The notes under the pieces: generated by a model
Databases searched by the model: none
Seen by the model: the letters and a program-made list of their open reading frames with translations, nothing else
Told to the model about the DNA's origin: nothing
NCBI RefSeq assembly: GCF_003334815.1
Contig: NZ_QOWO01000029.1
Direction: 5' to 3' (one strand)
Length of the DNA stretch: 52,109 bases
Source of the DNA: Escherichia coli
GTDB lineage: Bacteria; Pseudomonadota; Gammaproteobacteria; Enterobacterales; Enterobacteriaceae
Program-made: the position numbers and the translations under genes
Shown: piece by piece, positions 51,953 through 52,109 of the stretch
How positions within the stretch are numbered: position 1 is the first letter of the stretch
Layout: each line of letters opens with the position of its first letter

Positions 51953-52109
51953 TGAGAGATCCCCTCATAATTTCCCCAAAGCGTAACCATGTGTGAATAA
52001 ATTTTGAGCTAGTAGGGTTGCAGCCACGAGTAAGTCTTCCCTTGTTATTGTGTAGCCAGAATGCCGCAAAACTTCCATGCCTAAGCGAACTGTTGAGAGT
52101 ACGTTTCGA

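Follow-up and report, generated by a model that had tools for sequence, protein, structure and literature searches.

The DNA at one edge of the window (by which we mean the whole 52,109-nucleotide stretch of Escherichia coli DNA analysed here) very probably records the insertion of a copy of IS10 into ybeF, a gene for a LysR-type regulator, in a phylogroup-A-like E. coli close to K-12, with disruption of the gene. What the two sides of the junction are, where exactly the breakpoint lies and that YbeF has lost the N-terminal part of its helix-turn-helix (HTH) were all observed directly. In the explanation that we favour, IS10 (an IS4 family element of 1,329 bp with a cut-and-paste DDE transposase) would have jumped into codons 52-55 of ybeF; the reading frame that can be followed across the junction would comprise the transposase C-terminus with its natural TGA and then four codons of inverted repeat, in phase with ybeF by chance; the promoter-proximal 51-54 codons of ybeF would have been parted from the rest by some 1.3 kb; and the remnant, in which the HTH_1 DNA-binding domain lacks positions 1-22, would constitute a null allele. 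Beyond the window edge one would then expect the remainder of IS10, a 9-bp duplication and the 5' portion of ybeF. Described in these terms, the event is an ordinary IS10 knockout of a dispensable regulator, apparently private, both components of which were already known.

Reading frames and the IS10 terminus

Two open reading frames lie on the minus strand at this edge of the window: one of 37 codons, from ATG 52078 to TGA 51967-51965, which encodes MEVLRHSGYTITREDLLVAATLLAQNLFTHGYALGKL, and one of 266 codons, from GTG 51952 to 51152, which begins VLNLTPSAISQSIQKL. They share a single frame, the gap between them consisting of the TGA and four further codons, and translation of 52108-51152 in that frame gives RNVLSTVRLGMEVLRH…GYALGKL, a stop, and then GDLSVLNLTPSAISQ…. 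An initial annotation of this DNA had described these features accurately, including every coordinate and the translation of the shorter frame (checked by strand reading and against the list of open reading frames), its continuation beyond the stop as GDLS-V(GTG 51952)-LNLTPSAISQSIQKL, and the openness of the frame from ATG 52078 upstream to the window edge (both borne out by the one-frame translation). As to interpretation, its suggestions that ybeF is broken within the HTH and that a strain polymorphism is possible both stand; the causes that it proposed do not, and insertion of a mobile element had not been considered.

The segment at 51952-52109 (minus strand) is the terminal 158 bp of an IS10 of the IS10-Right type ('IS4-like element ISVsa5 family' in NCBI nomenclature), and the element continues past the window edge. 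Of the two IS10 copies that Tn10 carries on plasmid R100, it is identical at 158/158 positions to the tetD/tetC-proximal one, with 6 differences from the other over the same 158 bp; from the Tn10 map we take the tetD/tetC-adjacent copy to be IS10-Right, which agrees with the R100 gene order. With a 153-bp query (51957-52109), matches were obtained in 1,174 plasmid records, identity reaching 100%; Tn10 on R100 is among them, and the matching records are annotated 'IS4-like element ISVsa5 family transposase'. The R100 IS10 spans 1,329 bp (locus L002, 9830-11158), from CTGATGAATCCCC… to …GGGGATCTCTCAG, and encodes a 402-aa transposase (annotated WP_001339197.1) with the C-terminus …NRNVLSTVRLGMEVLRHSGYTITREDLLVAATLLAQNLFTHGYALGKL. 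The 3' end of this gene occupies 51965-52108 of the window on the minus strand, where the translation of its last 47 codons, RNVLSTVRLGMEVLRHSGYTITREDLLVAATLLAQNLFTHGYALGKL, and the natural stop TGA 51967-51965 are identical to those of R100, the other 355 codons falling past the window edge. ATG 52078 is accordingly an internal methionine, residue 366 of the 402-aa transposase.

Beyond the transposase stop, the 'inside-end' terminal inverted repeat of IS10, …GAAATTATGAGGGGATCTCTCAG, occupies 51974-51952 and contains a GATC (Dam) site at 51961-51958; its extent of roughly 23 bp is what we presume for IS10. The Dam site in the inside end of IS10 has a regulatory role. The four codons reading GDLS are thus no part of ybeF, being read from this inverted repeat, which ends at 51952. 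Alignment showed that the IS10 segment of the window finishes …GATCTCTCAG, at the same base as IS10-Right of R100, and that the terminus …CTCTCAG is also that of a stand-alone IS10 in the chromosome of E. coli CP53. Overall, the visible part, which amounts to 12% of the element, shows no difference from IS10-Right of Tn10 on R100, the likeness extending to the 158 bp of DNA, the transposase C-terminus and stop, and the terminus with its GATC.

Positions 52109-51650 were used as a megablast query against 5,426 complete E. coli genomes. The ybeF part of the query found 100% matches in thousands of these genomes, from query position 157 onward only, identity to MG1655 ybeF beginning abruptly at the corresponding window position 51953. 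This start lies at 51953, rather than at 51951, because the dinucleotide AG is common to the IS10 end and to ybeF by chance. A three-way alignment confirmed that the window tracks IS10 through …CTCTCAG and thereafter MG1655 ybeF starting AGTGCTTAATCTGACC…; given the defined IS10 terminus, the breakpoint is exact to the nucleotide, between 51952 and 51951. From 51951 downward the sequence is 100% that of MG1655 ybeF, with Val52 as its first residue. IS10 and ybeF are codirectional, and the insertion interrupts codons 52-55 (Val52-Leu55; …IVNAAK/VLNLTPS…, where the stroke marks the insertion), a point that falls between the two helices of the LysR HTH. Only the transposase-3', or 'inside', end of the element is visible, the window edge lying 158 bp into it.

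The remnant of ybeF

MG1655 ybeF (b0629) has 317 codons, and YbeF is located between lipB and lipA (PMC4398509), the gene order in the MG1655 annotation being ybeD-lipB-ybeF-lipA. The window holds the 3' remnant of the gene at 51152-51951 (minus strand), that is, residues 52-317 and the stop, with DNA 100% identical to MG1655. The neighbourhood is also that of intact K-12 ybeF, with an intact lipA (lipoyl synthase; 49978-50943, minus strand, from the list of open reading frames) downstream and tatE, the ybeM pseudogene, crcB and cspE next. The difference from the K-12 gene is that the native promoter, the start and the first 51 codons, which specify helices 1-2 of the winged HTH, have been cut off by the insertion sequence; these 51 codons have no counterpart within the window, and we infer that they lie, with the start and the promoter, beyond about 1.2 kb of IS10 outside it. 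The 266-aa reading frame owes its start codon to the junction itself, the first G of GTG 51952 being the last base of IS10.

By Pfam, HTH_1 (PF00126) lies at residues 31-89 of intact YbeF, where model positions 1-59 align (score 53.4), whereas the conceptual read-through of the window allele matches model positions 23-59 only, with a score of 31.8, and no complete N-terminal HTH_1 domain was found in it. LysR_substrate (PF03466) is intact in the remnant (model positions 5-207 of 209, E = 1.9e-16). The remnant thus keeps the recognition helix of the HTH, the wing and the whole substrate-binding domain, without residues 1-51; judged from this domain content, it would be unable to form a complete DNA-binding domain, and we take the allele to be a probable null, encoding non-functional YbeF.

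Across the 5,426 complete genomes, ybeF was found in 5,424, and at full length (317 codons) in 4,368. About 1,056 of the 5,424 (e.g. JJ2434 and O127:H6) match MG1655 ybeF over nucleotides 1-524 only, at approximately 94-95% identity, as at 669717-670240 of NZ_CP013835.1. Over the 3' half of ybeF, for the effector-binding domain, their divergence is too great for megablast to align, a pattern that suggests a mosaic or alternative allele in some lineages.

Target site and alternative explanations

IS10 moves by cut-and-paste transposition. PMC4574204 quotes a 9-bp target duplication for it, and a target preference of NGCTNAGCN (Halling & Kleckner 1982) or, in relaxed form, NPuCNNNGPyN. The predicted 9-bp target in the window is TGCTTAATC (51943-51951, minus strand), in ybeF codons 52-55, which directly adjoins the IS10 terminus and of which a duplicate would be expected at the far junction. 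This sequence agrees with the strict consensus at 4/6 specified positions, including one perfect GCT half-site, and with the relaxed consensus at 3/4 positions; like the strict consensus, the flank begins N-G-C-T. Both inside-end flanks in R100 also begin TGC, and one of them (CAG/TGCTCAGCA, the stroke marking the IS10 end) is a perfect match to the consensus. The stand-alone chromosomal IS10 of CP53 served as a positive control (L005, 430-1758): this copy, likewise 1,329 bp long with the same two termini, has the 9-bp repeat CGCTGGGCA on both flanks and interrupts yjcS, an alkyl sulfatase gene, the downstream part of which is annotated just as 'incomplete hypothetical protein'. As a separate observation on the two R100 flanks (L002, 11159-11167, and the corresponding flank of the second IS10 copy), the perfect NGCTNAGCN match is Tn10-internal sequence at the inside end of IS10-Left, and may be a relic of composite transposon assembly.

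The initial annotation had read the same DNA as an otherwise colinear ybeF carrying a point nonsense TGA, or as a natively shorter YbeF starting at GTG 51952. It is true that the TGA lies in the ybeF frame and that the GTG following it is preceded, 8-10 nt upstream, by GAGGGG, a motif resembling a Shine-Dalgarno sequence. Nevertheless, the sequence upstream of the junction is 100% IS10, and upstream of 51953 there is neither DNA nor protein similarity to ybeF codons 1-51; homology to the intact gene is found on one side of the stop only, the TGA lying inside IS10. The annotated gene has 317 codons, the length to which the 4,368 full-length matches conform, and in it GTG 51952 corresponds to the internal Val52 and not to a native start. 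The IS10 transposase naturally ends at this TGA, and the peptide that precedes the codon, which had been taken for the YbeF N-terminus, is the C-terminus of that enzyme, as both alignment and Pfam indicate. Nor does a LysR HTH alignment continue across the stop, as had been claimed, because the residues before the TGA are those of the transposase; only HTH_1 positions 23-59 align, from the residue after the GTG. The agreement in phase between the transposase frame and ybeF is a matter of chance, with a likelihood of 1 in 3. A sequence error had also been proposed, of which we saw no sign. The three-way DNA alignment and the Pfam comparison together rule out a point nonsense mutation or an alternative native start, and we regard the probability of either as negligible.

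Simple insertion was also weighed against an IS10- or Tn10-mediated rearrangement (an adjacent deletion, an inversion, or 'inside-out' transposition of Tn10 via its inside ends), in which the 5' part of ybeF would have been deleted or relocated and no 9-bp duplication would be present. The orientation rule needed here was read from the annotation of Tn10 on R100, in which both transposase genes point inward to tet, so that the 3' end of the transposase gene marks the 'inside' end. The end adjoining ybeF is such an inside end, and Tn10-promoted deletions and inversions, a subject reviewed by Kleckner et al. 1996, involve inside ends; furthermore, the far junction predicted for a simple insertion was not found in metagenome contigs, even when the ybeF and IS10 parts were allowed to lie 0-20 bp apart. 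These null searches are, however, uninformative on this point, since the collections lack the window's own junction as well. Stand-alone IS10 is by far the commonest configuration, counted at approximately 4,100 places on the chromosomes of 1,028 genomes, and the stand-alone copy in CP53 shows the target duplication. On balance a rearrangement is improbable. A canonical Tn10 insertion, although it would involve the same IS10 module, can be ruled out: Tn10 meets host DNA via its outside ends (the transposase 5' ends), whereas here host DNA adjoins the inside end, which indicates a stand-alone IS10.

The possibility that the contig end was wrongly extended into IS10, ybeF being in reality intact, draws on the position of both window edges in multicopy insertion sequences (IS186 at 1-75 and IS10 at 51952-52109), where short-read assembly is least reliable. 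It would be unexpected for a random mis-join to switch exactly at the biological terminus …CTCTCAG of IS10 and beside a target-like sequence, and the ending of a contig soon after it enters a repeat is normal for a real insertion; we therefore consider such an artefact extremely unlikely. The 75 bp at the opposite edge (1-75, plus strand) are the terminus of an IS186/IS421-family element (…GGTTCAACCCTTAAGTTAGCGCTTATG) beside entD; MG1655 has it at this site too. With an IS repeat at each end, the window looks like a short-read contig, which accounts for its stopping 158 bp into IS10.

Frequency, significance and source background

Insertion of IS10 into ybeF looks private to the source strain. 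The IS10/ybeF junction occurs in 0 of the 5,426 complete E. coli genomes, none of which covers at least 80% of the megablast query; no match to it was obtained in metagenome contigs, and a literature search for IS10 together with ybeF found no papers. IS10 itself is common, the 158-bp end being present in 1,028 of the 5,426 genomes (19%) at approximately 4,900 places, a frequency that agrees with the 16% quoted in PMC4574204. A comparable natural disruption of ybeF exists in E. coli GZ2408P (NZ_CM172482.1, 4756218-4757948), where two YbeF pieces and an IS1 transposase are annotated. The family of the inserted element differs, being IS1 and not IS10. The GZ2408P locus spans 954 + 777 bp, the 777 bp corresponding to the 768 bp of IS1 and a 9-bp duplication; here an IS has knocked out the gene in nature in a separate event.

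Deletion of ybeF is viable and has been reported to change the expression of 67 genes, lowering that of lrhA and raising that of the FlhDC regulon (PMC9068703). Given that IS10 is common and that ybeF is dispensable, the source strain probably lacks YbeF function naturally, and its regulation of motility may be slightly altered. The biological weight of the finding is small, IS10 being among the best-studied transposable elements and ybeF being dispensable and poorly characterised. There is a lesson for annotation: where an in-frame stop occurs at the edge of a contig and the open frame runs off it, the sequence should be compared with IS termini first, before a nonsense pseudogene, recoding or an alternative start is called.

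We also considered whether the junction might fortuitously create an expressed, HTH-less YbeF of 266 aa, through transcriptional read-through from the transposase gene and initiation at GTG 51952. The GAGGGG motif lies within the inverted repeat, at a plausible Shine-Dalgarno spacing from this GTG. A simple sigma-70 scan of the minus strand over 51952-52109 found no promoter-like site, and expression of the IS10 transposase is very low. Repression by Hfq and antisense is described in PMC5006887. We judge expression of this kind to be very improbable. Were it to occur, the product, made up of linker and effector-binding domain, might act by sequestering the ligand of YbeF or by entering mixed oligomers with LysR-type paralogues such as CitR.

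The remainder of the window bears on the identity of the source. From 3309 to 51953 (48.6 kb) it is colinear with MG1655, with no gaps and 14 substitutions, at 9744, 26893, 27499, 27585, 28873, 32432, 36467, 38316, 39723, 42267, 46799, 48855, 48867 and 50584. A 25-kb stretch (26890-51889) that holds 13 of these substitutions is 100% identical to wild isolates including FORC_081, BR1220, A14, NCTC9041, NCTC9100 and others. The 14 differences from MG1655, together with this identity to wild isolates, indicate a natural source strain that is closely related to K-12 but is not K-12 itself, and they rule out a K-12 laboratory strain with a Tn10 history. Within the same region ybeM (deaminated glutathione amidase) is split into two overlapping open reading frames (48752-48985 and 48982-49545, plus strand); this is the same frameshift pseudogene as is annotated in MG1655, and two of the substitutions (48855 and 48867) fall within it.
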